From Treponemataceae bacterium (GTDB taxonomy: Bacteria > Spirochaetota > Spirochaetia > Treponematales > Rectinemataceae): a stretch of 64,000 nt of DNA. Positions 3,872 through 22,609 of this stretch are shown here, one piece after another. The notes beneath the pieces are model-generated. The model saw nothing but the letters and a program-made list of their open reading frames with translations. It had not been told where the DNA came from and did no database searches. Position 1 is the first letter of the stretch, and each line of letters starts with the position of its first letter. The translations under genes were made by a program, and so were the position numbers. The stretch spans positions 192,001 through 256,000 of the forward strand of contig CAXXHO010000005.1 of the NCBI GenBank assembly GCA_963667725.2, read 5' to 3'.

Positions 3872-4669
3872 GTGCGAAAGATGACATTCATGCTTACGGT
3901 ATTCGCCATGGTCTTCGCGATGGTCTTCGCCGCCGGCGCCCAAACCGCCAAGCTTCCCGACCTCAAGGGAAGAAAAATCATCGCCGTGACCGAAAACGCC
4001 TATCTCCCCCTCAATTTCGTCGACGCTAAATCAGGCAAGGCCATGGGATGGGAATACGACGCGGTGAACGAGATCGGCAAGCGTCTCAACGCCAAGATCG
4101 AGTGGAAGATCACTTCCTGGGACACCATGATCCAGGCCGTGCGCGACGGACAGTTCGACGTGGGCATGGACGGCATCACCATAACGGACGAAAGGAAGGG
4201 CCAGGTCGACTTCTCCAGCCCCTACATGGTGAGCCAGCAGTTCATGCTCGTGCGCGCCAGCGAAAACCGCTTCCAGGACGAAAAGGCCTTCTCGGCCAAC
4301 CCCAAACTCCTCATCGGGGCCCAGGCGGGCACCACGAACTTCTATGTGGCCGTCTACAGCGTCCTCGACGGCGACGAAGCCAATCCCCGCATCAAGCTTT
4401 TCGAGACCTTCGGCGCCACGGTCCAGGCCTTGATAGCCGGAGACATCGATATGGTGCTTATGGACGCCGCCTCCAGCAAGGGCTACATCGGCGCCTACCC
4501 CAACAAGCTGAAATCGGTCGGCGGCGCCCTCGGCACCGAAGAATTCGGATTCATCTTCAAGAAAGGTTCCGACCTCGTCGGCCCCTTCAACGCGGCCATC
4601 GCCGCCCTCAAGGCCGAGGGATTCCTCGACAGGCTTAACACGAAGTGGTTCTTCGAGTACAAGCCTTAA
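3872..4669 (+). CDS. Amino-acid ABC transporter substrate-binding protein (family 3)
   Basis: Signal peptide; TENAYLPLNF, GITITDER, VDFSSPY. GGAGG precedes the GTG start. Confidence 0.9.
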   Translation: MRKMTFMLTVFAMVFAMVFAAGAQTAKLPDLKGRKIIAVTENAYLPLNFVDAKSGKAMGWEYDAVNEIGKRLNAKIEWKITSWDTMIQAVRDGQFDVGMDGITITDERKGQVDFSSPYMVSQQFMLVRASENRFQDEKAFSANPKLLIGAQAGTTNFYVAVYSVLDGDEANPRIKLFETFGATVQALIAGDIDMVLMDAASSKGYIGAYPNKLKSVGGALGTEEFGFIFKKGSDLVGPFNAAIAALKAEGFLDRLNTKWFFEYKP

Positions 4670-4721: not shown

Positions 4722-4778
4722 CCCTGTCTGTGCCAGTAATGGCACAGACAGGGGATTTTCTGTGCTAAATAATGAACA
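4722..4778. promoter_or_regulatory. Probable sigma54-activator upstream sites; the palindrome may also act as terminator of the SBP gene
   Basis: CCCTGTCTGTGCCA-gtaa-TGGCACAGACAGGG (4722-4753). Core TGTGCCA-N4-TGGCACA at 4729-4746 and a degenerate copy TGTGCTA-N4-ATGAACA at 4761-4778, 32 bp apart. Confidence 0.55.
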
Positions 4779-4899: not shown

Positions 4900-4916
4900 T
4901 TGGCATGGGCTTTGCT
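4900..4916 (+). promoter_or_regulatory. sigma54 (-24/-12) promoter
   Basis: TTGGCATGGGCTTTGCT matches TGGCAy-N5-TTGCW, 43 nt before the SBP start. A GAFTGA activator is encoded in the same cluster. Confidence 0.8.
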
Positions 4917-4959: not shown

Positions 4960-5892
4960 ATGAAACGAATCGTTGGCGTTCTTTTGTGCGCGTTGGTGCT
5001 GATAACCGGTGTTTCCGCCCAAGCCAAGAAGAAGCAGGTCGCCGTCTGTCTTCCTGGATCAGTCGAGTTCTTCGCCGTGGAGCGCAAAGGCATGGACAAG
5101 GCAGCCGCCGAGTTCAACCTTCAGCTCACCTATTCCGACGCCGAATGGGACGCGGGAAAACAACTGAACCAGGTGGAGAATTTCGTGGCCAAGGGCGTGG
5201 ACGCCATCATGCTCTGCTCCCGCGATCCTCTCGCCCTGCTTCCGGCGGTAAAAATGTGCAACGAAGCCAAGATCCCCCTCATTACGTTCACCAACACGCT
5301 CGGCTCCGACAAGAACGGACAGTATCCCGGCGTCGTTACCTTCATTGGCATCAACGACCTCTCCTATGGCACCATGATGGGCAAGATGGCCAAACAGCTC
5401 CTGGGCGACAGAGCCGCGAACATCGTCCTCATCGAGGGTGAGCCTGGAACCAGCGCCCAGCGCATGAGAAACGACGGTTTCAGGGCCGAACTCGCGAACA
5501 GCAAGTACAAGATCATCTACAGCCAGGCGATTCCCGGCTGGACCAAGGAAGGATCGCTCGCCGCCATGGAAGCCTTTCTCCAGAAAGGACAGGATTTCGA
5601 TCTCGTCTCAGCCGAATGGACGGACGGCGCGGTCGCGGCTGCCAAAGCCATCAGGGAAGCCGGACTCAAGGGGAAATACATCACCGCCCTCGAGTATTCC
5701 AAGGCGCTCCAGGCCGAGATCAAGGCTGGAAGCGTCAACATGACGGCCTACGCTTCCATCATAGACATGGGTTATCTGGCAGTCCAGAAAACCGCCGAAT
5801 TCCTCTCCGGAAAGAAGATCGATTCCTACATCGAAGTCATTCCCGTCATCGTCGACAAGAACAATGTGAGCAAACACGTTCCCGAGATGTGA
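4960..5892 (+). CDS. Sugar ABC transporter substrate-binding protein (RbsB-like, CUT2)
   Basis: Signal peptide; DAEWDAGKQLNQVENFVAKGVDAI, GEPGTSAQRMR; AAGGAGG RBS. Confidence 0.9.
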   Translation: MKRIVGVLLCALVLITGVSAQAKKKQVAVCLPGSVEFFAVERKGMDKAAAEFNLQLTYSDAEWDAGKQLNQVENFVAKGVDAIMLCSRDPLALLPAVKMCNEAKIPLITFTNTLGSDKNGQYPGVVTFIGINDLSYGTMMGKMAKQLLGDRAANIVLIEGEPGTSAQRMRNDGFRAELANSKYKIIYSQAIPGWTKEGSLAAMEAFLQKGQDFDLVSAEWTDGAVAAAKAIREAGLKGKYITALEYSKALQAEIKAGSVNMTAYASIIDMGYLAVQKTAEFLSGKKIDSYIEVIPVIVDKNNVSKHVPEM

Positions 5893-5909
5893 TCCCATCC
5901 TCCAACAGT

Positions 5910-5943
5910 CGGCGGGGAATCCGCTTCGGTGGATTCCCCGCCG
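5910..5943 (+). other. Intercistronic stem-loop after the SBP gene (likely mRNA stabiliser)
   Basis: CGGCGGGGAATCCGC-TTCG-GTGGATTCCCCGCCG with no U-tract. Confidence 0.6.
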
Positions 5944-5957
5944 CTCAAGAGAAAACA

Positions 5958-7223
5958 ATGGAACCTAAATCGATACGAAACGGCGGTAAAATCGCCGCGC
6001 AGCTGATGGTCGGCCCCGAACAGCTGGCCTATTTCGGCGAAGCCGGAATACTGGCATGTCTGGACTATGCGCTCGATGTCCTCGCTCCCCGGGAGCTGAT
6101 TCTTTCCATAACCGATTCATCGAGCGACCTGGCTCGAAAGATCACGGAGCGCTGTGACAAGGTGGGTACAAGGGTTTCTCTATGGGTGATGGTTTTCGCC
6201 GACCGCCCCGCCGGCCTGTCTTCTTTTCCCCATGTCCAGGACGCTGAAGGCAGGACGGGATACGGCGCCACCGGCGCCTGGGAGAATATCGGAAAGGGCG
6301 ACGAAAAGTTCCTATTCTATTGTCCCAGCGCCCTGGATAAGGACGAGAAAGGCATAGAATCCGCGCTTCGGGCGGCGAAATCCATTGGCGCGCGGGGCAT
6401 CTTCCTCGACCGGATACGATACCCCTCCCCCGCCAACGGCTTCGAATTCATGAGCGCCTGTTCCTGCCCCCTATGCAGGGAAGCCTTTCGCGCCTGGAGC
6501 GGCGAAAAATGGCCAGACCTAGCTTCGCTCTTTGTCCGGCATGCGGCTCATGGCGTCGGCGGCCCTCAAGCCTTCGTCGAGAGCGCCGAGAAAGTACTTC
6601 AATTCCGCTCGCGGATGGTCAATAACGCGGTGGCGCGTTACGCCGATGCCGCTCACGCGGAGGGCCTCAGCGTCGGTCTGGATCTCTTCGCGCCCGCGTT
6701 GGCCGGTTTCGTCGGCCAAGATTATCATTCACTGTCGCGCCACGCGGATTTCATGAAACCGATGCTCTACTGCAAAGCCTGGGCGCCGGCAGGCATGCCC
6801 CTGGAATTTTTCCTTTTAATGAAGGGGCTTGAAGAATCAGGCATCGACGCATCAACAGCCGTAAGCTTCGTTTCCAAGTTCTCCGGAATAGACCGAGAAT
6901 ACCTGGATGCCGTGCGCCGGAAAGGAAATTTCCCGGCTTCGCTCGCCGCATCAGAACTGCTCCGCTGTCAGCGGGAAATAGATCCCGCAGCGGCTCCAAA
7001 ACCAGAAATCTACGCGGGCATCGAGCTGGTTCAGCACGAAGCCTACGATACTCAAATCGACGACGGTGTACGCGACTCGTACCTGGAAAGCCTCTCGGGC
7101 CAAAACATCGCCGTATGCTGGAATATATTGTACGTGCCCAAGCGGCATATCGAGGCGATAGCCTCGATGGACGCTATCGCGTCGATCGACGCGATTTCAC
7201 CGCATCACGAGGACTCTAAATGA
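5958..7223 (+). CDS. Putative glycoside-hydrolase-like TIM-barrel protein
   Basis: GIFLDRIRYP, CSCPLC.EAF, GQDY..L...ADF..PMLY resemble GHL10/DUF187-like proteins. ATG at 5958 preferred over the 5616 ORF start. Confidence 0.6.
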   Translation: MEPKSIRNGGKIAAQLMVGPEQLAYFGEAGILACLDYALDVLAPRELILSITDSSSDLARKITERCDKVGTRVSLWVMVFADRPAGLSSFPHVQDAEGRTGYGATGAWENIGKGDEKFLFYCPSALDKDEKGIESALRAAKSIGARGIFLDRIRYPSPANGFEFMSACSCPLCREAFRAWSGEKWPDLASLFVRHAAHGVGGPQAFVESAEKVLQFRSRMVNNAVARYADAAHAEGLSVGLDLFAPALAGFVGQDYHSLSRHADFMKPMLYCKAWAPAGMPLEFFLLMKGLEESGIDASTAVSFVSKFSGIDREYLDAVRRKGNFPASLAASELLRCQREIDPAAAPKPEIYAGIELVQHEAYDTQIDDGVRDSYLESLSGQNIAVCWNILYVPKRHIEAIASMDAIASIDAISPHHEDSK

Positions 7224-8764
7224 ACATTCAAGAAAATTTGCGAACGCCAGAGGGCGGAAATGCGGCTGCCCCTCCCGTCATTCTCGCGATGAAGAACATT
7301 TCAAAAAGCTTCCTGGGCGTCCGGGTATTGGACAACGTCGATTTCTATCTCAGAAAAGGCGAAGTCGTCGCTTTTCTCGGCGCCAACGGAGCGGGAAAAT
7401 CGACGCTCATGAAGATTCTCTCCGGCGTCTATAACGCGGACAGCGGCCAGATATTCCTTCACGACAAACCGGTTCAATTCAGCAAACCGATCCATGCCTA
7501 CAGGGCGGGAATCAGCGTCGTGCACCAGGAATCGAGCCTCATTCCCACCCTGACCATCATCGAAAATCTATTTCTCGGCCGTGAATCCACAAAGGGTTCG
7601 GGGATACTGAACGGCAAGCTCATGCAAGCTGAATACGAAAAGCTCTGCGAACGTTTCGATTTGGATATTCCCTCCGCGACGAAGGTACGCGATCTCAGCC
7701 CCGCGCAGAAAAAAATGGCCGAGATAATGAAGGCGGTGTCGCGCAACTGCAGCATCATCATAATGGATGAGCCCACCGACGCTCTCAGCTCCCAGGAAAC
7801 CGCCCTCCTGTTCAAAACCGTCGGTGACCTTAGGCGCGAGGGCATGAGCATCGTTTTCATAACGCATTTTCTGGACGAAGTAAAAAGCATCGCCGACAGC
7901 GCGACGGTGATCCGCGACGGGAAAATAGTCGCCGAGCGCGTCTCGCCTCTTCTGCCGATCAAGGAAATAGTCACCTTGATGCTCGGCAAGGAAGTGGCGG
8001 AACGAAAACCCTTCGTAAGGGCTCATGGCGAAAAGGAAGAGCTGGTGGTAAAGAACCTCGGCCGCCGCGCCGAATTTTCGGATATTTCATTCGAACTTCA
8101 CGCGGGCGAAGTGCTCGGAATCGCCGGCGTCGTGGGATCGGGCAAGACGGAACTGGCGAGGACACTCTCAGGCGCATCGGTCAGCCACAGCGGTTCCATG
8201 ACACTGGAGAACAGACCGATACAGCTCCGTTCCCCATACGATGGGGTCAAGCATGGTATCGGCATGGCGCCGGAAGACCGTAAAACGCAGGGACTGATCC
8301 TCGACCATGACATTCAAGGCAATATTTCCCTTTCATCCCTGCCCAGCATCGTCAAGTTCGGATGCATCAACGCAAAAAAGGAAAAAAGCCGTACGATGTC
8401 TGTGGCCGCCCAACTTTCGATAAAGTTCGCCAGCCTTGATCAGCGGGTAAAATTCCTGAGCGGCGGCAACCAGCAGAAATGCGTTCTGGCTCGATGGCTG
8501 CTGGCCTCCCCGAAGGTTCTTATTCTGGATGAGCCCACGCGCGGCATCGATGTCGCCACGAAGGAACAGATCTACGCGACGGTGCGCGATCTCGCGTCGA
8601 AAGGAAAATCCATCATCTATTTCTCTGGAGATCCCGCCGAACTCCTTGTGGTCTCCGACAGGGTGTTGGTTATGCAAAAAGGGAAGATCAAGCGTTCTTA
8701 CGCGATTCCGCCATCTGAAGATATACTACTAAAAGATATGATTGAGGTGAACAATGAGCGGTAA
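7220..8764 (+). CDS. Sugar ABC transporter ATP-binding protein (two NBDs, RbsA-like)
   Basis: GANGAGKS, IIMDEPT, ITH; second NBD LSGGNQQK, LDEPTRGIDV. Confidence 0.95.
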   Translation: MNIQENLRTPEGGNAAAPPVILAMKNISKSFLGVRVLDNVDFYLRKGEVVAFLGANGAGKSTLMKILSGVYNADSGQIFLHDKPVQFSKPIHAYRAGISVVHQESSLIPTLTIIENLFLGRESTKGSGILNGKLMQAEYEKLCERFDLDIPSATKVRDLSPAQKKMAEIMKAVSRNCSIIIMDEPTDALSSQETALLFKTVGDLRREGMSIVFITHFLDEVKSIADSATVIRDGKIVAERVSPLLPIKEIVTLMLGKEVAERKPFVRAHGEKEELVVKNLGRRAEFSDISFELHAGEVLGIAGVVGSGKTELARTLSGASVSHSGSMTLENRPIQLRSPYDGVKHGIGMAPEDRKTQGLILDHDIQGNISLSSLPSIVKFGCINAKKEKSRTMSVAAQLSIKFASLDQRVKFLSGGNQQKCVLARWLLASPKVLILDEPTRGIDVATKEQIYATVRDLASKGKSIIYFSGDPAELLVVSDRVLVMQKGKIKRSYAIPPSEDILLKDMIEVNNER

Positions 8765-9764
8765 CAATATCGATGCTAAGGCAGCGGCAACCATTCAAGC
8801 GGGCGGTATGGATGCCTCAAAGAAGAGGGGGCAGTACTACAAAGAAATTTTAAAACGCTACGGCCTGCTCATCAGCTTCTTTGTGCTCTCGCTGGGGATA
8901 TCCCTGCTGACGCCCAACTTCCTCTCCTCCAGGAACCTGCTCAACATCCTCAGGCAGAGTACGATCGTCGGCATCATGGCCATAGGCACCACCTTCGTCA
9001 TCATCGGTGGCGGATTCGATATCTCGGTCGGATCGGTGCTTGCCTTGTCCGCGGCGTTGGCGCTCGGGCTCCAAGGCTCGATGCACTGGGCCTTGGCCGC
9101 CACGATCGCTATCCTCGCCGGCGCGCTGATAGGTCTCTTCAATGGTATTCTCGCCGCGAAGATTCACATCGTTCCCATGATTGCGACGTTGGGTACCTCC
9201 ACCATCGTACGCGGCCTCGTCTACCTCTATACCGGCGGCTACCCCATCAACGGTCAGCAGCCAGCCTTCGAGGTGATCGGCTCCGGCTATCTGTGGGGCA
9301 TCCCCGTACCCGTCATCATAATGATCGCGCTTGTCGTCATTTTTCAATTCATTCTCTCCAAGACGCAGCTCGGCCGCTACTGCTGCGCCGTCGGCGGCAA
9401 CAAGGAAGCGACGAGGCTCGCCGGCGTCTCCGTGGACTTCTACCACGTCATGACTTTCCTCATCGGCGGTCTCATGGCGGGCATCTCGGGCGTCGTCTAT
9501 GCGTCGCGGCTTTCGTCGGCCACGCCCCTAGCGGGGCAGAATTACGACATGGACGCCATCGCGGCGGTGGTCATCGGCGGCACATCGGTTTCAGGCGGCG
9601 AAGGCACGGTTCTCGGCGCCATGATAGGCGTCCTTCTTCTCACCGTCGTCACCAACGCCTTCAATCTCCTCGGCGTGCCGGTCTTCATCCAGTACGTCAT
9701 AAAGGGCCTGATCATCCTGGTCGTCGTGGGCATCGACTCCTACTCCAAGAAGAGGCCCCGCTAA
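8754..9764 (+). CDS. Sugar ABC transporter permease (RbsC-like)
   Basis: FDISVGS, GGNKEATRLAGV, DAIAAVVIGGTS.SGG; multiple TM segments. Confidence 0.95.
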   Translation: MSGNNIDAKAAATIQAGGMDASKKRGQYYKEILKRYGLLISFFVLSLGISLLTPNFLSSRNLLNILRQSTIVGIMAIGTTFVIIGGGFDISVGSVLALSAALALGLQGSMHWALAATIAILAGALIGLFNGILAAKIHIVPMIATLGTSTIVRGLVYLYTGGYPINGQQPAFEVIGSGYLWGIPVPVIIMIALVVIFQFILSKTQLGRYCCAVGGNKEATRLAGVSVDFYHVMTFLIGGLMAGISGVVYASRLSSATPLAGQNYDMDAIAAVVIGGTSVSGGEGTVLGAMIGVLLLTVVTNAFNLLGVPVFIQYVIKGLIILVVVGIDSYSKKRPR

Positions 9765-9815
9765 GCGATTCGCCTTTGTCCTTTCGAGCCAAATGGTATA
9801 CACTGGCGGCACGGT

Positions 9816-11195
9816 ATGAAAACGAAGGTACTTATCGTCGACGACGAGCAGCCCATGAGGGCTTCGCTCGGCGAACTCTTGCAGAGTGAAGGCTACCAGA
9901 CGATGTTGGCGGACGGCGCATCTTCCGCGCTCGAACAGACCAGCGACGGCCATCCCGACATAGCCATCGTGGACGTGCGCATGCCGGGCCGCGGCGGCCT
10001 AGACCTCATCCAGGAGCTCCGCGATATATCCCCCAACCTCAGGATTTTCATGATGACAGGCTACCCGTCCGTGGAAACCGCGGTGTTGGCCATGAAATAC
10101 GGCGCAATGGACTTTTTCACCAAGCCGCTGGATTTCAGGAAGCTGCGTGACCAGCTGAATCAATGCAAAATGGCAGGCGCCAATCAGCAGCCGGAAACGC
10201 CCAATCATGCCGTCGGCGCCCTCTACGGAGAAAGCCTGGTCATTCGCGAACTGCGGGAATCGATCGAGCGCATCGCCCCCACGGAAGCCTCCGTCATCAT
10301 CACGGGCGAAAGCGGCACGGGAAAAGAATTAGTAGCCGAAGCCATACACAGCCAATCACTGCGTTCCGCCCATCCTTTCATGAAGATCAACTGCGCGGCG
10401 ATACCTGACACACTTCTCGAAAGCGAGCTGTTCGGCTATGAAAAAGGTGCCTTCACGGGCGCTCTTGCCCGAAAAGCGGGGCTTTTCGAAAGCGCCAGTC
10501 AGGGCAGCGTCTTCCTCGATGAAATCGGGGATATGGACATCCGCCTTCAGTCGAAACTCCTTCATATACTTCAGGGAGGGGAATTCCGCAGGTTGGGCGG
10601 CACAAAGGACCTCAACGCCAATACCCGGATCATATCGGCGACCAACCAGAACCTGCATACGCTCATCGAAAAAGGCATGTTCAGGGAAGACCTTTATTAC
10701 CGGCTCTCGGTGATATGCATCCAGACTCCCCCGCTTCGCGAGCATATAGAGGACATTCCCGCGCTCGCGAAACGCTTCGTCGCCGATTTTTCGCGTTCAT
10801 ACGGCAAGGAAGAACCCCTCATCGACGATGAGTTCCTGGCTATCCTCGAGGCGCAGCCCTGGCCCGGAAATGTCCGTGAGCTGAAAAACTGCATCGAGCG
10901 CGCCATCATCTTCTGTGACGGTCGCCATCTCGGCACTCGCCATCTTCCGCAGCAGTACAAGATGGGAATTGGCAGAAATGTGGTCGTTTCCTGTCTCGAT
11001 GAATCGAAGGAATCGGATGCATCCCGGAATTCGATGAGCGAGGCGCGGCAGGACCTGGAACGCAGCATGATTCTTGAAGCGCTCGACAAGGCAAAGGGAA
11101 ACAGGACGGAGGCCGCCAGGCTGCTTGGAATACCGCGACGAACCCTCTATAACAAGCTCGAAAGGCTTGGCATGGACGACGATGCAAGGTCTTGA
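9816..11195 (+). CDS. NtrC-family sigma54-dependent response regulator
   Basis: REC domain (IVDDE, DVRMP, FTKP), GESGTGKE, GAFTGA, FLDEIGD, WPGNVREL, Fis-type HTH. Confidence 0.96.
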   Translation: MKTKVLIVDDEQPMRASLGELLQSEGYQTMLADGASSALEQTSDGHPDIAIVDVRMPGRGGLDLIQELRDISPNLRIFMMTGYPSVETAVLAMKYGAMDFFTKPLDFRKLRDQLNQCKMAGANQQPETPNHAVGALYGESLVIRELRESIERIAPTEASVIITGESGTGKELVAEAIHSQSLRSAHPFMKINCAAIPDTLLESELFGYEKGAFTGALARKAGLFESASQGSVFLDEIGDMDIRLQSKLLHILQGGEFRRLGGTKDLNANTRIISATNQNLHTLIEKGMFREDLYYRLSVICIQTPPLREHIEDIPALAKRFVADFSRSYGKEEPLIDDEFLAILEAQPWPGNVRELKNCIERAIIFCDGRHLGTRHLPQQYKMGIGRNVVVSCLDESKESDASRNSMSEARQDLERSMILEALDKAKGNRTEAARLLGIPRRTLYNKLERLGMDDDARS

Positions 11196-13056
11196 GCTCC
11201 GTGGCGTCACGGCTTCCTACAGGGAGACGATAGCCCTCGATGAGTTCAGCCTGATAGCGGCGAGCGGCGAAGTGCATGCCATCATCGGGGAACGCAGGGC
11301 GGGAAAATCATGTATCGTTTCCCTCCTCGAAGGAAAGATGACCCTCAATAAAGGCAAGATTCTCATCGATGGCATCCCCCTGGCGAAACGCAATCCAAAG
11401 ATTATGGCCCAGGCTGGTATTGGCGTTTTCCATCAAACGCAAAACATCATTCCCACACTTTTGCCCTGGGAAAACATCATGGCCGGGAGGATGCCCATCG
11501 GTTTTTCATCGGGCAACAAGCGCGATGAAACTGAGGCCTTTATCCTGACGCTCTGCGAAAAGTGGAGTCTCCGTCCAGATCTGCGCCTGCCTATGCATCG
11601 ACTGACGAGAATAGAATCCACCGTTATCGAGCTTGGGCGAGCCTTGGCGTTCAATCCAAGGATCCTTATCCTGGATGAGCCTTCCGGTCGCTTTACCGCC
11701 GATGAGATGCAGGTCCTCTATTCCGTGCTGGCGGAAAGGCGGAGCGGCAATGAGGCAGTTCTCTATGCGGCCTCCAATGTCGACGAGGTGCTGAGGATCG
11801 CCGATATCATCTCGATTATAAAAGCGGGGAAAATTGTGGAAACCCAGCCGGCAAGAAGCCTGGACCGAGAGGACATTGTCGATCTCGCCTATTCTTTCAA
11901 CGAGTCGAGGGAAGAGCTGTTCAGCAAGAACATTCGCCTGTTGAAATACAAGAAGTACAATGAGGAAATAGTCTCCAATCTCCCGCTGGGAACGGTCTTT
12001 TTCGACGGGGAAGGCGAAATATACCTTTCCAATCAATCAGCCTGCGACATTATCTGCACGGATCCAAAAACGTTGATTCCCGCGTCAAAGGCGGGAGAAC
12101 CTGCTGCGGCGATTCCACTTACCGCCTTGGCGCTGCGGAATGGTTTCGGCGATAAACGACTGGCGCTGATCATGGATTCCATAAGATCGGGAGTATCGGC
12201 GAAATGGAAACAGTGGCCGACGGCAAACGGCAGATTCGTCAACGTGATGACCTACCCCTTCCACGATAGTTTGAAGCAGCTATTCGGAACCATCCTCGTA
12301 CTTCAGGACGTAACGGAAGAGAGGGCGACGCGGGACTATCTGGCAAGCCTTGACCGAACTTCGTCCATCGCCCAGCTGGCGACGGGCATAGTTCACGAAG
12401 TGAACAATCCTCTCGGCATCATTTCCAACTATGTGGAACTCCTGCTCATGAAGACAAACGACGAGTATGCTCGTGAAAGGCTCGAAATTATCCGAAATGA
12501 AATAAAGCGAATTCATGGAAGCATGCTCAATCTCCTGTCCTTTTCGAGCGTCGATTCGTCAGCATTGAGCCCGCATGACATCAACGCGGTCATCAAGGAT
12601 TCGCTTGTCCTGCTTGAATACGAAGCGGAACGTCTCGGCATCAGCCTGGAAGCTGATATACCTAGCGAACCGGTGATGCTGCGCATAGATCCCGCCAGAA
12701 TCAAACAAGTCCTGATCAATCTCCTCATGAATGCGCTCGATGTTGCGGGACGATGTGGTTCCATAGTAGTCCGACTTCGAAAGCAGGCCGATAATAGCGC
12801 CCTCCTGCAGGTACAGGACAGCGGCCCCGGCATCCCGCCCGCCAAGATCGCCAGTCTTTTCACGCCCTTCCTGAGCGAAAAAAGCGGAAGCGGACATGCC
12901 GGACTTGGTCTTTCAATCTGCAAGCATATAACGGAAGTCCATGGCGGCAGGATTTGGTGCGAAAGCGAACCGGGCAATACCGTCTTTTTCATTGAACTAC
13001 CCTGCGAGGGACCAATGCAGGTAAAAGGACCGCATTATGCGCAGACCGCGAATTAA
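11182..13056 (+). CDS. Soluble sensor histidine kinase with an N-terminal degenerate sugar-ABC ATPase domain and a PAS-like domain
   Basis: GERRAGKS, VFHQ, ILILDEP; then a PAS-like segment; HEVNNPL, NLLMNA, DSGPGI, FTPF, GLGLSIC. No obvious TM helix. Confidence 0.88.
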   Translation: MQGLELRGVTASYRETIALDEFSLIAASGEVHAIIGERRAGKSCIVSLLEGKMTLNKGKILIDGIPLAKRNPKIMAQAGIGVFHQTQNIIPTLLPWENIMAGRMPIGFSSGNKRDETEAFILTLCEKWSLRPDLRLPMHRLTRIESTVIELGRALAFNPRILILDEPSGRFTADEMQVLYSVLAERRSGNEAVLYAASNVDEVLRIADIISIIKAGKIVETQPARSLDREDIVDLAYSFNESREELFSKNIRLLKYKKYNEEIVSNLPLGTVFFDGEGEIYLSNQSACDIICTDPKTLIPASKAGEPAAAIPLTALALRNGFGDKRLALIMDSIRSGVSAKWKQWPTANGRFVNVMTYPFHDSLKQLFGTILVLQDVTEERATRDYLASLDRTSSIAQLATGIVHEVNNPLGIISNYVELLLMKTNDEYARERLEIIRNEIKRIHGSMLNLLSFSSVDSSALSPHDINAVIKDSLVLLEYEAERLGISLEADIPSEPVMLRIDPARIKQVLINLLMNALDVAGRCGSIVVRLRKQADNSALLQVQDSGPGIPPAKIASLFTPFLSEKSGSGHAGLGLSICKHITEVHGGRIWCESEPGNTVFFIELPCEGPMQVKGPHYAQTAN

Positions 13057-13852
13057 GCAGACGGCGCTGGATCGCATCCCCTGGTGGCTCGTCGCCATCG
13101 TAGGCCTAGGGGGCTGGCTCCTCGCGTCCGCCATGGCCACGGCCGATTATCGCGTCATATTCGGCGCCGTATCCCGCGGCCTCGGCGTCACGCTGATGGT
13201 ATCGCTCATCGCGTATGCCGCATCGATACTGTTCGGTCTAGGGCTGGGGCTTCTGCGCGCTTCGCGGCTTCGCGCCGCACGCGAAGCCGCGACCTTCTAC
13301 ATCGAGCTGGTACGCGGCCTTCCAATGCTCGTCATTCTGTACTACATAGCATTCGTTGGCGCTCCCGCCCTAGCTCAAGCGCTCAACGTCATCCTGACCC
13401 CACTCATCGCGACGGGGCTCATCGGCCGCGTCGAAGCGCGCAGCTTCGATTTCGCCACGCGCGCCGTCCTGGCCCTCACCCTCGGCTACTCGGCTTTCAT
13501 CGCGGAAATCTTCCGCGCGGGCATAGAGAGCGTGGACAAAGGCCAGGTCGAAGCCGCCGAAGCCCTCGGGATGTCACATCTTCAGGTGATGTGCCGCATC
13601 GTTCTGCCCCAAGCCATCAAGAATGTCCTGCCCGCCCTCGGCAACGAATTCGTCGCCATCATCAAGGATTCCTCCCTGGTCTCGGCCCTCGGCGTCCAGG
13701 ATATCACCCAGCTGGGCAAGGTCTATGCCGCGTCCACTTTCAAATTTTTCGAGACTTACAACGCCGTCGCGTTCTTCTACCTCTGCCTCACGCTCAGCCT
13801 ATCCCTTCTCGTGCGAGCCCTTGAAGCTCGCCTGAAAACGGGAAAACGCTGA
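13037..13852 (+). CDS. Amino-acid ABC transporter permease
   Basis: YIELVRGLP, AEIFRAGIESVDKGQVEAAEALGM, IKDSSL. Confidence 0.93.
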   Translation: MRRPRIKQTALDRIPWWLVAIVGLGGWLLASAMATADYRVIFGAVSRGLGVTLMVSLIAYAASILFGLGLGLLRASRLRAAREAATFYIELVRGLPMLVILYYIAFVGAPALAQALNVILTPLIATGLIGRVEARSFDFATRAVLALTLGYSAFIAEIFRAGIESVDKGQVEAAEALGMSHLQVMCRIVLPQAIKNVLPALGNEFVAIIKDSSLVSALGVQDITQLGKVYAASTFKFFETYNAVAFFYLCLTLSLSLLVRALEARLKTGKR

Positions 13853-16984: not shown

Positions 16985-18247
16985 CTAAAGAATCCACATC
17001 ACCGAGGCCGGCACATACGTGATGATCATCAAGACCAGGATCATCGCGCCCAGGAAGGGCCAGGTTTCCTTGATCGTATCCTTGAGGTCGGCCTTCAGCA
17101 CGCGCGACGCCGTGAAGAGCGTCAGCCCGAAAGGAGGTGTGAGCATGCCGATAGCGAGGTTGGTCGTCAGAATGATGCCGAAATGCACGAGGTCGATCTG
17201 CAGCACTTCGAGTATGGGAAGCAGGAGGGGCACGAGGATGATCTGTATCGAGCCCGATTCCATGAACATGCCTGCTATCAGGACGATTATATTGACGACA
17301 AATAGAAGCGTGTACTTGTTCATGCCCAAGGAGAGTACGGCCTCGAAAGCTTTCTGGGGAATCTGCATGTAAACCATGGTCCAGGCGAATAGGGAGGCTG
17401 CCGCCACGATGATCATGATGCCCGCCGAACTGATAGCCGACTGGAGGAAGATGCCGGGCAACTCCTTCAGCTTTATTTCCTTGAACACGAAAACGCCGAT
17501 TATTATTGAATAGATGACGGCCGCGACCGCGGATTCGGTGGGGGTGAAGACGCCGAGGAATACGCCGCCCACGATGATGACGGGCGTGCCGAGGGCGACA
17601 AGGGTGTCGATCACGACTTCCTTCACTGACTTGGTGCCTAAGCCTTTGGATTCGCGCGGGATCCTGTGTTTTTTCGCGGTGAAAAAGGTGACGATCATCA
17701 AGGCGCCGCCGACCATGACTCCGGCCGGAAATCCGACTCTATAGAGCTGGCCTACAGAAGCCTTGGAGAGGGTTCCGTAGATGATAAAGGCTATGCTCGG
17801 GGGGATTATGATGCCTATCGGGCTCGCCGAACCCACGATGGCCGACGCGTAGGCGGGTTTGTATCCGTGGTCCTTGAAGCCCGAAATCATGACGCCGCCT
17901 ATGGCGGCCGCCGTGGCGATGCCAGAGCCCGAGATGGCGGCGAAGAGCATGCAGGCAAGGATGGCCGTCATGCCCATGCCTCCCGTCACCTTCGATACGA
18001 AGAGGCCCGCGAAACCGATGAGGCGCTTCGCCAGGCCGCCTTTGTTCATGAGGTCGCCGGCGAGGATGAAGAAGGGAATGGCAAGCAAAGCCGCGGAATC
18101 GATGCTCGCGAAAAAGCGCTGTACCGCCGTTGTGGCATTGATGCCCGAAGCGAAAATGGTGACGAGGGCCGAGCCGCCCATGGCCGTGACGATGGGAGCG
18201 CCCACAGCGAGAAGCATGAGGACGGAACCGAAGAGCAGCAGGGTCAT
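16985..18247 (-). CDS. dctM: TRAP transporter large permease
   Basis: LLAIPFFILAGDLM, ISGSG.A, IIPPS, FTPTES, TPPFG. Confidence 0.95.
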   Translation of the reverse strand: MTLLLFGSVLMLLAVGAPIVTAMGGSALVTIFASGINATTAVQRFFASIDSAALLAIPFFILAGDLMNKGGLAKRLIGFAGLFVSKVTGGMGMTAILACMLFAAISGSGIATAAAIGGVMISGFKDHGYKPAYASAIVGSASPIGIIIPPSIAFIIYGTLSKASVGQLYRVGFPAGVMVGGALMIVTFFTAKKHRIPRESKGLGTKSVKEVVIDTLVALGTPVIIVGGVFLGVFTPTESAVAAVIYSIIIGVFVFKEIKLKELPGIFLQSAISSAGIMIIVAAASLFAWTMVYMQIPQKAFEAVLSLGMNKYTLLFVVNIIVLIAGMFMESGSIQIILVPLLLPILEVLQIDLVHFGIILTTNLAIGMLTPPFGLTLFTASRVLKADLKDTIKETWPFLGAMILVLMIITYVPASVMWIL

Positions 18248-18741
18248 GCCTTAGCCTCCTGTACGGACTTCGCTTCCTGCACTCCCTTGAGAATTCCTAC
18301 GAAGGTCTGGAATATGAAGACTCCGAAGGCAGGCGGGAAAATCCAGTATACCCAACGTTTGGGTATGCGCATGTTGGTGCTCACCTGGGTGCCGGCGAGC
18401 TTGATGAATTTAAAGGCGATGAAAAACATCGCGACGAAGAATATGAGGGAGAGGAGTTGCTGAAAAACGAGGAGCCAAGCCTTGGGAGCCTTGGGCAGGT
18501 ACTCCTCGAGCACGCTCACGTTGATATGGCTCCTGCGCTTGGCTATCATCGCCGCGCCGATCATGACTGCCCAGATATCGGCGTAGCGAGTGAGCTCTTC
18601 CGTCCACATCAGGCCCGTTCCGAAAACATATCTCAACAAAATCTGCGTGGCATAGGTGGCCGTCATCAACATGAACAGCGTGACGATGACCCAGCCGCAT
18701 ATCTTGTCAAGGATGTCACTGGTTCTCAGCAACGCTTTCAT
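18244..18741 (-). CDS. dctQ: TRAP transporter small permease
   Basis: Four TM segments, WTEELTRY, HINV; AAGGAG RBS before ATG 18741. Confidence 0.92.
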   Translation of the reverse strand: MKALLRTSDILDKICGWVIVTLFMLMTATYATQILLRYVFGTGLMWTEELTRYADIWAVMIGAAMIAKRRSHINVSVLEEYLPKAPKAWLLVFQQLLSLIFFVAMFFIAFKFIKLAGTQVSTNMRIPKRWVYWIFPPAFGVFIFQTFVGILKGVQEAKSVQEAKA

Positions 18742-18837
18742 ATCGATACTCCTTGCGTTAGGCATGCGAGAAAAGGCTGTCCTGGAAGTTGGTCGCTACC
18801 GGGGCAGCCCCTCAAGAAAATTATTTACTGGTCTCGA

Positions 18838-19809
18838 TCACTTAATCGCCAGGATGGCGTCATAGAATTTTTTCACGTCGCCCTTGGCGTATTTGTTGAT
18901 GACGGGCTGGACTGCCTTGACGAAGGGTTCGGTGTCGAGGCTGTTGAAGACCATGCCCTTGGAGATGAGTTCGGCTTTGGCTTTTGCCTCGTTGCCTTTC
19001 TGGTCGAGTCCGAGCTTGTAGGCCGCGTCCGTGGCGGCTTTCTGGATGACGGCCTGATCCGCGGCGGGGAGCTTCTTGAACCAATCTCCCGAGGCCAGGA
19101 GCGTGGCCATGGCGAAGACATGTCCCGTCTCGGAGACATATTTCTGTACTTCGTTGATCTTGTAGTCGCGGGTAGTGATGATGGTGTTCTCATGACTGTT
19201 GACGGTGCCCTGCTGGAGCGCGGTGTAGACTTCGGACCATGCCATGGCCTGAGCGTTGGCGCCCATCGCCTTGAAGGCTTCGACGAGAACGGGGCTTTCG
19301 CTGATGCGCATCTTGAGACCCTTGAGGTCTTCGGGCTTGGTGATGGGGAATTTGGCGTTCGTCACGTGGCGGTAGCCGCGGGGCATCAGGGAGAGCGACT
19401 TCAGGCCGTACTGATCGGAGAGGTCGAGGAGATCCCTGGCTGTCTTGGAAGCGATGAATTTCTCGACATGGTCCCAGCTCCTGAACAGGAAGGGCATATC
19501 GAGGACGTTGATGGCGTTGATGAACTGGCTGGCGTCGCCAGAAGTGATGACGGCGAACTGGAGGTTGCCGGCCTGCATGGCTTCCATGAGGGGGCCGGAA
19601 TCGCCGAGCTGGCCGCCGCCATAGATGACGATCTTGTACCTGTTGCCGGTGCCGGCTTCGACCTGCGCCTTGAATTCCTTTGCCCAGTTGTCGTAGGCGG
19701 TGTTGGGCGCGGCGATGTGGCCGAGCTTGAGTTCCTTCTGGGCGAAAGCGCCGGCGGTTGCGCCGAACATCATAGCGGCGACGAGCAGAGCGATAATCCC
19801 TTTCTTCAT
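18838..19809 (-). CDS. dctP: TRAP transporter substrate-binding protein
   Basis: Signal peptide; GGQLG, DLKGLKMR, EVYTALQQG. Confidence 0.94.
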   Translation of the reverse strand: MKKGIIALLVAAMMFGATAGAFAQKELKLGHIAAPNTAYDNWAKEFKAQVEAGTGNRYKIVIYGGGQLGDSGPLMEAMQAGNLQFAVITSGDASQFINAINVLDMPFLFRSWDHVEKFIASKTARDLLDLSDQYGLKSLSLMPRGYRHVTNAKFPITKPEDLKGLKMRISESPVLVEAFKAMGANAQAMAWSEVYTALQQGTVNSHENTIITTRDYKINEVQKYVSETGHVFAMATLLASGDWFKKLPAADQAVIQKAATDAAYKLGLDQKGNEAKAKAELISKGMVFNSLDTEPFVKAVQPVINKYAKGDVKKFYDAILAIK

Positions 19810-19835
19810 GATGATCCTCCTTGAATACCTTAAAT

Positions 19836-19852
19836 GTGCCACTATGTAGCAC
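19836..19852. promoter_or_regulatory. Second copy of the putative IclR operator, upstream of dctP
   Basis: GTGCCACTATGTAGCAC, 14/17 identical to the palindrome at 23513. Confidence 0.6.
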
Positions 19853-19909
19853 ATTGTTCACATACAAAGTCGCGGACCGACAGGTTTTCCCGCCGTCGCC
19901 TCGCTCAGC

Positions 19910-20935
19910 TCAGACCGTCTTTCCCGCGGCCTTGGCTAAGTCGTAGGCCACCTGGATGATCCAGTCTTCCTGACCGCCCACGGCCTTGCGTTTCCCAAGC
20001 TCGATGAGGACGTCGCGCACGTCGACGCCGAAACGCTCGGCGCCCTTCTTAGCGTGGAGCATGAAGCTGGAATAGACGCCCGCGTAGCCCATGATAAGGG
20101 AGTTGGAATCGTGCCGAGGGAGAGGTTTGCCCTTCGCCGCCACGAGGGGGAGGAGGACTTTCTCCGCCGCGTCCATCGTTTTGAAAAGGTCGGCGGCCAC
20201 ATCGGCGCCGGACTTCTTCAGTGCGCCTACAAGCATCTCAGTGGCCGCGTTGCCGGCCCCGGCGCCCATGCCTCCCAGGGAACCGTCGATGTAGGTGGCT
20301 CCGGCCTTGACGGCGGCGAGCGAATTGGCGACGGCGCAGCCCAGGTTGTCGTGGGCATGGTGGCCGACGGGAATCTTGAGCGCGGCTTTCAGGGCCGCGA
20401 CGCGTTCGCCTACCTGGTCGGGCAGAAGGGCTCCTGCCGAATCCGTGGCGTAGACGACGTCGGCGCCGTAGGATTCCATGATGAGGGCCTGCTCCACGAG
20501 CTTGGCCGTGTCGGCCATATGGGCCATCATGAGGAAGCCCACGACGAACATGCCCATTTTCTTGGCCGCTTTGATGTACTCTTCGGAAACGTCGGCTTCG
20601 GTGACGTGGGTAGCCACGCGCACGACGCTGGCGCCCCGGCGCTGGGCTTCCTCGAGGAGATCGAGGGTGGCGATGCCGGGCACGAGGAGGACGGCGATTT
20701 TAGCCTTCTTCACTACCCTGGCCGCCGCCTGGATGAGGTCGAGCTCATTTTCGAGTGAAAAGCCGTAGGTGAGGGAAGCGCCGCCGAGACCGTCGCCGTG
20801 GTTCACCTCGATGATGTCGACGCCGGCATCGTCGAGGGCAGCCGCTACTTTGGCCACATCGGCGCTCGTATACTGATGCGAGACGGAGTGGCTGCCGTCC
20901 CTCAGGCTCGTGTCGGTGATATAGACTTTGCTCAT
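19910..20935 (-). CDS. dmpG: 4-hydroxy-2-oxovalerate aldolase
   Basis: [38 protein letters not shown]. Confidence 0.95.
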
Positions 20936-21807
20936 CGTTTGCCTTCCTGAATGCGTTGGGCGAATTTCTCCGCCACCGCCACCGCGGCCGCGTTGATGAT
21001 GTCCAGGTTGCCCGTATGCTTGGGCAGGAAATCGCCCAGGCCTTCCACTTCGATGACGGTGGTGACCGTATCGCCCTGGAGGATGGGTTCGACGAGGAAG
21101 CGGTAGCCGGGAACGTAAGTTTTTACGTCGGCGAGAATTAGATCTATCGAGGCTCGGATGGCCGTCAGGTCGGGCCTGCGAACCCTGCAGAGGATGGTGT
21201 TGCGCATCAGGATGGGGGGATCGGCGGGATTGAGGACGATGATGGCCTTGGCCTGGTCGGCGCCGCCGATGACCTTGAGCGCCTTCGTCGTCGTCTCGAT
21301 GAACTCATTGAGGTTCTGCCTTGTTCCCGGCCCCGCGCTCCTGGAGGAGATCGAGGAGACGACTTCCGCGTAATAGACGTCTGCGGCGCGGTTGATGGCG
21401 TACACGATGGGCGAGGTGGCCTGTCCGGCGCAGGTGACCATGTTGACGTTGTCGAGCTTGAATATTTCCTCGCTGAGATTGACCGAGGGCACGACATAGG
21501 GGCCAATGGCGGCAGGGGTCAGGTCGATGGCGATCTTACCAGCGGCCTTGAGCCTGGGCGCATGGATGAGGTGGGGTCCTGCCCCGGTGGCGTCGAACAC
21601 TATCCTTATGTCATCCACCGCAAGCATCTCGTCGATGCCTTTGATGGTCGTGGGGATGCCGAAACCCTTGGCGATCTCAATGCCGGGGGATTCCTTGACG
21701 CCCACCACATAGGCTACTTCGAGGAAGGGACTCCTCCTCAGCTTGACGAGAAGGTCGGTGCCGATATTGCCGGGGCCGATGATGGCCGCCTTGATCTTTT
21801 GTGCCAT
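20932..21807 (-). CDS. dmpF: Acetaldehyde dehydrogenase (acylating)
   Basis: [45 protein letters not shown]. Confidence 0.95.
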
Positions 21808-21820
21808 TGTTCCTTTCCTT

Positions 21821-22609
21821 TTAATAGAAAGCGATTTCGACGGAGCCGAGCGTCGAATAATCCGCCCTGAAGCGATCGCCCTTGCCGGCGCTTATGGCCG
21901 CGGAAAGTGCCCCAGAAAGAATCACTTCGCCCTTTTTGAGCATGGTGCCGTACTTCCTCATGGAATTGGCCAGCCAGGCCACGCAGTAGGCGGGATCGCC
22001 AAGGACGTCGGTGCCTTTGCCGCCATTCTTGCGTTCGTCATTCAGGGAAAAATCCATAACCTCGGCCTTGAGGTCGATTTCGGCGATCTTCTTCCGCACC
22101 CTGCCCAGCACGTACCTGCCCGAGGACGCGTTGTCGGAGACCGTGTCGCAGTAGCCGATCTTCCAGTTGCCGATGCGGCTGTCCACGATCTCGAGAGCCG
22201 CGACGACGTAGTCGGTCGCGGCGAGCACATCGGCCGCCGTGATCTCGCCGGCCATATCGAGGTCGCGGGCGAGGACAAAGGCGATCTCCGCCTCCACCTT
22301 GGGCTGGACCATGGTGGCGCGCTCGATCCGTTCGCCCGCCGCTTCCATGTCGGAGAAGAGGTGGCCGAAATCGGGCGTTGTGACGCCGAACATGTCCTGC
22401 ATGGGCTTGGAGGTGAGGCCGATCTTCTTGCCGGATATCTTTCTGCCCACGGCCAGCGCTCGCTCAACATTGCGCATCTGCACGGCATAGGCGTCGTCGA
22501 CGTCGATGGCCGGGTAGGTAACGGTAAGTTTCTCGATGGGGACGCAGGTCCTGGAAGCGGCGTCGAGGGCGTCGGCGGCCGCGACGATTTCAGCTGGTGC
22601 GAGAGCCAT
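21821..22609 (-). CDS. mhpD: 2-keto-4-pentenoate hydratase
   Basis: [36 protein letters not shown]. Confidence 0.92.

Follow-up and report, generated by a model that had tools for sequence, protein, structure and literature searches.

The stretch of DNA analysed here (the window) comprises 64,000 nucleotides of contig CAXXHO010000005.1 of a Treponemataceae bacterium (assembly GCA_963667725.2, forward-strand positions 192,001 to 256,000) and contains a CUT2-type sugar importer operon followed by genes for a sigma-54 activator and a soluble histidine kinase (11182-13056). In this kinase, a pump-derived nucleotide-binding domain (NBD) of the ATP-binding cassette (ABC) type is found where the sensor normally sits. 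Members of the kinase family are nearly always encoded beside a sugar pump and therefore probably switch the pump genes on, perhaps by plugging into the pump. The kinase gene and its parts are as follows:

11182..13056, + strand: soluble histidine kinase, NBD-PAS-HisKA-HATPase, 624 amino acids (translation without a stop, Pfam, AlphaFold, independent contigs)
11191..11886, + strand: ABC NBD1-like input domain, residues 4-235 (NCBIfam, alignment to NBD1)
11287-11310, + strand: Walker A, GERRAGKS (motif alignment)
11419-11460, + strand: Q-loop region, Q85 kept (motif alignment)
11602-11616, + strand: signature region, LTRIE (motif alignment)
11662-11682, + strand: Walker B, ILILDEP (motif alignment)
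11764-11778, + strand: H-loop without His, YAASN (motif alignment)
11866..11985, + strand: last NBD helix and long helical linker, residues 229-268, the subfamily's most conserved stretch (helices 229-240 and 243-265 in the model)
11986..12315, + strand: PAS-like domain, residues 269-378, the least conserved domain (AlphaFold, Foldseek, homologue matches)
12370..12558, + strand: HisKA/DHp, phospho-acceptor His405 at 12394-12396 (Pfam; His invariant in 146 aligned sequences)
12688..13005, + strand: HATPase_c catalytic domain, N, G1, F and G2 boxes intact (Pfam, alignment)

The open reading frame (ORF), as delimited mechanically, starts with TTG 11074; 17 close full-length relatives (44-89% identity) begin near ATG 11182, and the nearest named homologue belongs to a Rectinemataceae bacterium (89% over the whole protein). 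A Pfam search identifies ABC_tran (residues 20-168, E 1.6e-15), HisKA (397-459) and HATPase_c (503-608). The best NCBIfam matches of residues 4-235 are the CUT2 ATPases AraG, YtfR, XylG, AlsA and RbsA, all under the curated cut-offs, and the rest of the protein matches AtoS-like kinases, also under the cut-off. The N-terminal domain is closer to the first NBD (NBD1) of the RbsA-type ATPase of the same operon (27% identity, E 1e-26) than to the second (NBD2; E 1e-11), and the motif-by-motif alignment with NBD1 given in a preliminary description of this DNA, made from the letters alone, is borne out with all the quoted motifs present. That description also proposed a single ORF with an NBD, a helical linker, intact HisKA and HATPase domains and no transmembrane (TM) helix, which agrees with the translation, Pfam, AlphaFold and Kyte-Doolittle profiles: the highest 19-residue mean is 1.28, versus 2.84 in the permease of the operon, and neither a TM helix nor an extracellular sensor is found. 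The phospho-His of HisKA and a HATPase_c domain with N, G1, F and G2 boxes are features of class I (HisKA) kinases.

Pfam makes no PAS call in the window kinase; the PAS-like domain of the preliminary description is recovered from the strand and helix order of the AlphaFold model (residues ~270-376), from Foldseek matches to LOV-kinase chimeras, and from homologues that match PAS_4 in a Pfam scan of 13 chosen family proteins. The model, built from a 146-row alignment (mean pLDDT 90.4, pTM 0.55), consists of the NBD, two helices, the PAS-like domain, DHp and CA. Parts of it match LOV-kinase chimeras (the top Foldseek matches) and ABC NBDs such as LptB; among the matches listed, none joins a LOV-kinase-like part and an ABC NBD. 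Across 18 subfamily sequences, invariant columns make up 20/40 of the linker, 39/228 of the NBD, 13/110 of the PAS domain and 26/61 of DHp.

The fusion is a genuine gene and not an assembly artefact, because contigs from two studies cross it without gaps. One contig of run X2 (possibly the source run) spans 9552-13300 with 0 differences, and one contig of run X5, from the other study, spans 9549-13300 with 27 differences and 0 gaps; run X6 covers the kinase stretch in pieces only, and run X23 has no reads there. In two RNA-type runs, fractions of 0.14 and 0.05 of the sequence words are present. Together with at least 136 full-length NBD-kinase fusions among 50%-identity representatives (136 of the 150 listed), these contigs remove the doubt, raised in the preliminary description, that the fusion might be peculiar to one assembly. 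Named family members come from Spirochaetota, Planctomycetota and Thaumasiovibrio subtropicus (WP_087018013.1). In genome samples scored for family members at E 1e-105, the family is present in 19/301 genomes of the bacterium's own order, with up to 4 copies per genome, in 14/401 genomes of its phylum (profile search, this genome included), and in 19/37 genomes, one of them borderline, from the order of a Planctomycetota genome (G645). A single-protein search of 400 genomes of the same phylum yields no family member, and neither do 301 genomes of the class around G647, a set with no positive control; on plasmids, there is no true fusion among the 25 best rows. An H-box pattern search of genome contigs finds 3 fusions among 80 loci. 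The genome analysed here encodes a second, distant NBD-kinase paralogue (contig C3, 373265-375076; locus L215 of G000), whose activator is divergent from another CUT2 operon. The closest orthologue (L211, G450:C12; 93% DNA identity) has, in its assembly, one missing base near residue 360, which splits the kinase over two frames. Another family member, P0135, of 851 amino acids, has two HisKA stretches in addition to an NBD.

In a quick tree of 105 domains (IQ-TREE, midpoint root, effectively unrooted), 49 kinase NBDs fall on one side of a branch (Shimodaira-Hasegawa-like approximate likelihood ratio test, SH-aLRT, 97), apart from 38 NBD1 and 18 NBD2 domains, and show long branches. In 36 modules, the kinase NBDs are 31% identical to the cognate NBD1 and 30% to non-cognate ones, which, along with the tree, rules out recent duplication from the neighbouring ATPase. 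The simplest reading of this unrooted tree would be one old fusion event. ESM Atlas also contains ABC_tran-GAF-HisKA clusters of ~830-850 amino acids, commonest in Actinomycetota (166 and 64 members; scores of 0.85, leads only), and a 515-amino-acid ABC_tran-HisKA cluster commonest in Spirochaetota; the NBD-GAF-kinases of Actinomycetota may be a parallel invention. The database labels of family members are 'AtoS', 'ATP-binding protein' and 'PAS domain S-box protein', and a family of at least 136 clusters at 50% identity has been hidden in plain sight because it is automatically annotated as 'AtoS' or 'ATP-binding protein'. Literature keyword searches aimed at the NBD-kinase architecture, subscription journals and supplements aside, found no description of it. 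The family is real, old, widespread, strongly linked to CUT2 importers and apparently unstudied.

In the window, the binding protein, a protein resembling glycosyl hydrolase-like 10 (GHL10), the RbsA-type ATPase, the permease, the activator and the kinase follow the sigma-54 motif in this order, all on the + strand:

4901..4915, + strand: sigma-54 (-24/-12) promoter-like motif TGGCATGGGCTTTGC, 45 bases upstream of the binding-protein start (motif search)
4960..5892, + strand: CUT2 sugar-binding protein, Peripla_BP_4 (Pfam, NCBIfam; the nearest solved relatives are ribose/monosaccharide-binding proteins)
5958..7223, + strand: protein without a Pfam or NCBIfam match, inferred start at 5958 (nearest ESM Atlas cluster named GHL10)
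7220..8764, + strand: RbsA-type fused two-NBD ATPase, predicted to be working (NBD1 with intact Walker A, DEPT and H-loop; NBD2 with LSGGNQQ)
8754..9764, + strand: CUT2 permease, BPD_transp_2, RbsC-like, the proposed docking partner (Pfam, NCBIfam; no solved relative in PDB)
9816..11195, + strand: NtrC/AtoC-type sigma-54 activator with REC, AAA+ and HTH_8 domains (Pfam, NCBIfam; the 3' end overlaps the kinase start by 14 bases)

Gene context across the family was analysed in metagenome loci retrieved with a degenerate Walker A pattern (80 with long flanks) and in loci from genomes. The 129 fusion genes with DNA reduce to 117 at 90% identity; 100 are scorable for the activator and 52 have at least 7 kb on both sides (loci L166-L205, with 300-base flanks only, are excluded from the context counts). 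The counts are those under the stricter of two score thresholds, with which L110 and L098 each lack one part; under the looser one, both are complete. A sigma-54 activator gene lies directly upstream, on the same strand, in 100/100 scorable loci. Within 8 kb of the 52 non-redundant fusions, a CUT2 permease is encoded in 46, a fused ATPase in 47, a binding protein in 47 and the activator in all 52; at 50% identity, the respective numbers for the three transporter components are 26/30, 26/30 and 27/30. By comparison, no CUT2 permease or ATPase gene occurs in 60 ordinary kinase loci, each 14 kb or longer, drawn from the 77 non-fusion loci of the H-box pattern search, and the chance of a CUT2 neighbour is ~9% by a hand estimate from the 23 CUT2 ATPases in 4.22 Mb of this genome. 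The linkage to CUT2 operons that the preliminary description had put forward for checking is thus confirmed.

The commonest layout in the family is a transporter operon divergent from the activator-kinase pair. A strict sigma-54 motif precedes 39/79 transporter operon heads, in loci that are not de-replicated by identity, compared with none on the reverse strand, 0.8 in shuffled sequence and 3/70 activator upstream regions; therefore, the activator-kinase pair very probably activates the neighbouring transporter operon. With the fused ATPase present in 47/52 loci, outright replacement of the ATPase by the kinase at a locus is ruled out. One kinase locus, L308, encodes a CUT2 permease and a single-NBD ATPase with intact LSGGQ (5503-6300), next to GatZ-like and PfkB genes, and therefore two separate NBD chains can probably serve a CUT2 permease. 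In L251 (6667-8638), genes for an extra binding protein and permease, without an ATPase, lie directly behind the kinase gene, in a locus that also contains a complete transporter, a nucleoside hydrolase and a PfkB kinase. This pair is a candidate dedicated receptor, perhaps as in L244; extra permeases alone are not diagnostic because many CUT2 operons have two permeases anyway.

Compared with 55 transporter NBD1s, the kinase NBDs keep the P-loop core G41/K42/[ST]43, Walker B D165/E166 and also G51, Q85 and E97/N98. Gone from them are the Walker A Asn and the D-loop Pro-Thr, together with a large part of the A-loop aromatic region; a conserved C-terminal helix motif, D-[KR]-x-x-L-x-x-L-x-Y, has been gained. 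Among the 136 representatives, GK[ST] is present in 129, Walker B DE in 120, both in 114, Q85 in 106 and the H-loop His in 82; the Walker A Asn is found in 4, the D-loop Pro in 5, and SGG in the signature region in none. In the window protein, Ser replaces the H-loop His, Arg replaces the Walker A Asn, the middle Walker A Gly is also Arg, and the D-loop reads DEPSGRF; its subfamily is unlike the rest of the family in that the H-loop His is lost and the D-loop Pro is kept. Of the features of a CUT2 transport ATPase, the kinase thus has Walker A GK[ST] and Walker B DE; it has one NBD only, no LSGGQ, and does not retain the residues of the composite hydrolytic site (His, Asn, D-loop). The word 'degenerate' used in the preliminary description holds with qualification, as most of the family keeps GK[ST], Walker B DE and the H-loop His, the loss of the His being a trait of the subfamily and not of the family as a whole. 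A non-LSGGQ signature taken alone does not indicate decay, because the operon's own working ATPase has LSPAQ in NBD1.

In MalK, as described in the part of PMC6906923 used here, the D-loop of one subunit contacts S38 of Walker A and the H-loop His of the other; by motif register, the N38 position in NBD1 would correspond to this S38. Dimerisation of NBDs depends on the D-loop, and contact with the membrane subunit on the Q-loop (PMC7756269, in part). The pattern of kept and lost motifs suggests that the kinase NBD binds nucleotide, can still face a permease and is unlikely to power transport. It is under purifying selection: the ratio of nonsynonymous to synonymous substitution rates (dN/dS) is 0.091, 0.058 and 0.073 in three pairs, in two of which dS is near saturation, versus 0.070, 0.060 and 0.062 for the working NBD1.

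Starting from the architecture, the family, the gene order, the sigma-54 motif and the selection on the NBD, we infer the docking and the signal path as follows. The kinase and the sigma-54 activator would form a two-component system that induces the neighbouring CUT2 importer and catabolic genes. The kinase dimer would offer two NBD1-like domains to the two coupling helices of the CUT2 permease dimer, at the place where the fused RbsA-type ATPase sits on transporting copies. A sugar-loaded binding protein would shift the permease, and the NBDs would follow, with nucleotide bound and little or no hydrolysis; the conserved NBD helix and the linker would relay the movement through PAS to DHp, His405 would phosphorylate the activator, and the sigma-54 promoter at 4901-4915 would fire. 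A share of the permease pool would act as receptor, and the feedback loop would be positive because the sensor parts lie in the induced operon. A kinase dimer that docks on the permease in the ATPase's place and reports the sugar-loaded binding protein is the leading explanation, one that we hold to be about as likely as not. The broader proposal is held with slightly more doubt than belief: a widespread, undescribed receptor class made up of a binding protein, a CUT2 permease dimer and a kinase dimer whose NBDs replace the motor, so that alternating access would result in phosphorylation of His and not in transport. Such a mechanism is plausible and open to direct test.

The preliminary description suggested that the kinase may dock on the permease like an NBD and phosphorylate an NtrC-like regulator. 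The ties to CUT2 and to the sigma-54 activator hold; docking itself is suggested by gene context, motifs and a complex prediction with the permease 8754-9764, as called for there, and the two co-adaptation tests yield no lasting signal. For two permease copies with kinase residues 1-240, the prediction scores 0.60, versus 0.21 for the best control, is graded weak and gives no interface; at least 96% of contacts are shared between runs, and the partner pLDDT is at least 79. In the calibration, the mark is reached by 116/157 solved and 2/215 mismatched pairs, but only 18 of the 157 solved pairs, along with both mismatches, reach it with a score of 0.60 or less. PDB contains no CUT2 permease, and no CUT2 ATPase is among the 60 listed of 342 NBD matches; recall of a like complex is therefore unlikely.

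Several observations weigh against docking on the permease. The score of 0.60 may reflect generic NBD-on-coupling-helix geometry, the controls having contained no unrelated ABC NBD. The control kinase loci mostly belong to other phyla, and in 3/52 fusion loci there is no CUT2 gene within 8 kb: L310, where the pair adjoins arabinose catabolic genes, and the related L325 and L326, which adjoin a hydantoinase-family gene. Q85 is missing in 30/136 representatives, and both the Q-loop and the P-loop look eroded in several of the loci L323-L341. A working ATPase is nearly always present, and therefore the kinase would have to compete with it. Co-phylogeny is not detected either: in 28 modules, the Mantel r of kinase NBD versus permease is 0.06 (partial 0.055, p 0.29), versus 0.33 (partial 0.67) for the positive control, NBD1 versus permease, and the kinase NBD gives 0.06 with the operon NBD1 and 0.10 with NBD2. 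With no phylogeny shared between kinase/activator and transporter, one is left with either a promiscuous joint or contact with something other than the cognate permease. Over residues 40-105, the membrane-facing segment, the kinase NBD shows excess likeness to the cognate NBD1 (z 2.3, p 0.01, n=28; region fixed post hoc), a signal that is not replicated in 17 new modules (z 0.49, p 0.32); the pooled z of 2.0-2.9 is driven by the discovery set and is not counted as support.

Among other readings, the kinase could monitor the transporter at work through contact with its RbsA-type ATPase (pairing with NBD2 is one option) instead of taking the place of that ATPase on the permease. It would then be a flux sensor comparable to PstB-PhoU-PhoR or MalK-MalT, for which parts of PMC6978683 and PMC6906923 provide precedents. 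The fused ATPase is found as often as the permease (47/52 loci), and the kinase NBD keeps the cis half of a nucleotide site that in CUT2 ATPases is completed by the NBD2 signature (PMC11466899, in part). However, loss is greatest among the very residues that make up the NBD-NBD interface (Walker A Asn, D-loop Pro/Thr), NBD2 already has its NBD1 as a covalent partner, and co-phylogeny is lacking with NBD1 (r 0.06) and NBD2 (r 0.10) alike; we consider this contact rather unlikely. Much the same low probability attaches to a PAS domain that is the true ligand sensor and binds, within the cytoplasm, either the sugar brought in or a catabolite, leaving the NBD no role beyond holding the kinase close to the transporter or stabilising the dimer. 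PAS is indeed the most variable domain, as a pocket for differing sugars might be, the missing co-phylogeny with the transporter is compatible with this role, and so is L310, whose activator-kinase pair adjoins genes of arabinose catabolism and has no transporter gene within 8 kb. Yet the NBD-to-PAS linker is the most invariant stretch (20/40 columns), which fits a signal that starts at the NBD; moreover, 129/136 representatives retain the P-loop core, and of the transporter classes scored, a single one is linked to the family.

Less probable still is an NBD that acts as a free-standing sensor of energy state (ATP/ADP) and gates an ATP-costly importer without contact to it. A soluble protein with GK[ST] and Walker B DE together in 114/136 representatives would suit such a role, but the A-loop aromatic region is poorly kept, and it is left unexplained why only CUT2 NBD1 domains are used, beside CUT2 operons only, with different sugars and catabolic genes, and in up to 4 paralogues per genome. 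The notion that the NBD is a passenger of an accidental or vestigial fusion could draw on the identity of only 27% to the operon ATPase, the long tree branches and the close orthologue that is frameshifted in its assembly; it is largely refuted, and we give it hardly any credence, in view of dN/dS of 0.06-0.09, at least 136 clusters at 50% identity, the placement of kinase NBDs on one side of a tree branch (SH-aLRT 97) and the independent contigs.

The NBD resembles NBD1 of the CUT2 ATPases (RbsA, AraG, XylG, MglA, YtfR) in fold, length, motif order and best NCBIfam matches, and also in having intact Walker A and B with a non-canonical signature; in RbsA, according to the portion of PMC11466899 used here, one of the sites is degenerate, in a one-active-site layout. 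Unlike these ATPases, the kinase has no second NBD, is fused to PAS-HisKA-HATPase and falls on a separate side of the tree, and its family has His or Arg for the Walker A Asn, has mostly lost the D-loop Pro/Thr and possesses its own C-terminal helix motif. The rest of the architecture, a PAS-HisKA-HATPase core with a REC-AAA+-HTH partner, is that of AtoS/AtoC and NtrB/NtrC-type pairs, and the best NCBIfam matches are AtoS and AtoC; however, these reach 195 versus a cut-off of 646 bits and 422 versus 714 bits, respectively, and the AtoS match covers residues 252-609 only.

Kinases that take their signal from a transporter offer functional parallels. In Bce modules (BceAB-BceS/BceR), a kinase that lacks an extracellular sensor presumably reads an ABC transporter whose genes are under its control (PMC10314905 and PMC6978683, in part), but BceS, as described there, sits in the membrane, where TM helices and lipids mediate its contact with BceB. 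The window kinase, which has no TM helix where an intramembrane kinase of the Bce type has two, is soluble and NBD-bearing, is encoded beside a binding-protein-dependent importer with a BPD_transp_2 permease, and probably acts via a sigma-54 activator. In PstSCAB-PhoU-PhoR/PhoB, a kinase that controls an ABC importer is likewise informed of that importer's state (PMC6978683, same portion); there, signalling depends on the adaptor PhoU, with contact to the ATPase PstB, and PhoR, unlike the window kinase, has no NBD. The window kinase would work like Bce or Pst-PhoU-PhoR but belongs to neither. CbrA-type SLC5/STAC fusions and 5TMR 'transceptors', as far as the part of PMC11109136 used here covers them, have a transporter part built into a histidine kinase; there a membrane domain is fused, whereas here the fused part is the cytoplasmic ABC motor domain, the membrane part is a separate gene, and the kinase chain contains no membrane transporter fold. 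In MalK-MalT, an ABC NBD likewise controls transcription of its own operon, but MalK is presented in that portion of PMC6906923 as a working ATPase that sequesters a separate activator, with no kinase and no duplicated NBD. All transporter-coupled sensing known so far relies on a separate kinase, an adaptor or a fused membrane domain. If the docking proposed here is correct, the joint between NBD and coupling helix can be rewired from energy input to signal output. The conformation of ABC importers would then be readable by a soluble module, which might serve as a biosensor chassis for any sugar that has a CUT2 binding protein, and there would be a way into the study of CUT2 transporters, for whose permease no relative has been solved.

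The remaining observations concern other genes of the window. NBD2 of the operon ATPase keeps the Walker A lysine (GVVGSGKT), as do only 4/36 neighbouring ATPases; Arg is found in 28, and 4 are unmatched. The protein encoded at 5958-7223 matches the GHL10-named ESM Atlas cluster with a score of 0.97, no Pfam family being common in that cluster, and its gene lies between those of the binding protein and the ATPase in all 6 mapped loci of the subfamily (the window and 5 others); the product may be an enzyme acting on the transported compound. The operon is flanked by genes for a polar amino-acid binding protein (SBP_bac_3, 3872-4669) and an amino-acid permease (BPD_transp_1, 13037-13852), which look as if the 4.7-13.0 kb module had been inserted into an amino-acid ABC locus, and a hairpin is found near 4723-4755. 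The region 16985-22609 on the - strand, by eye from the ORF list, contains what we take to be a tripartite ATP-independent periplasmic (TRAP) transporter and genes resembling 2-keto-4-pentenoate hydratase, acetaldehyde dehydrogenase and 4-hydroxy-2-oxovalerate aldolase.

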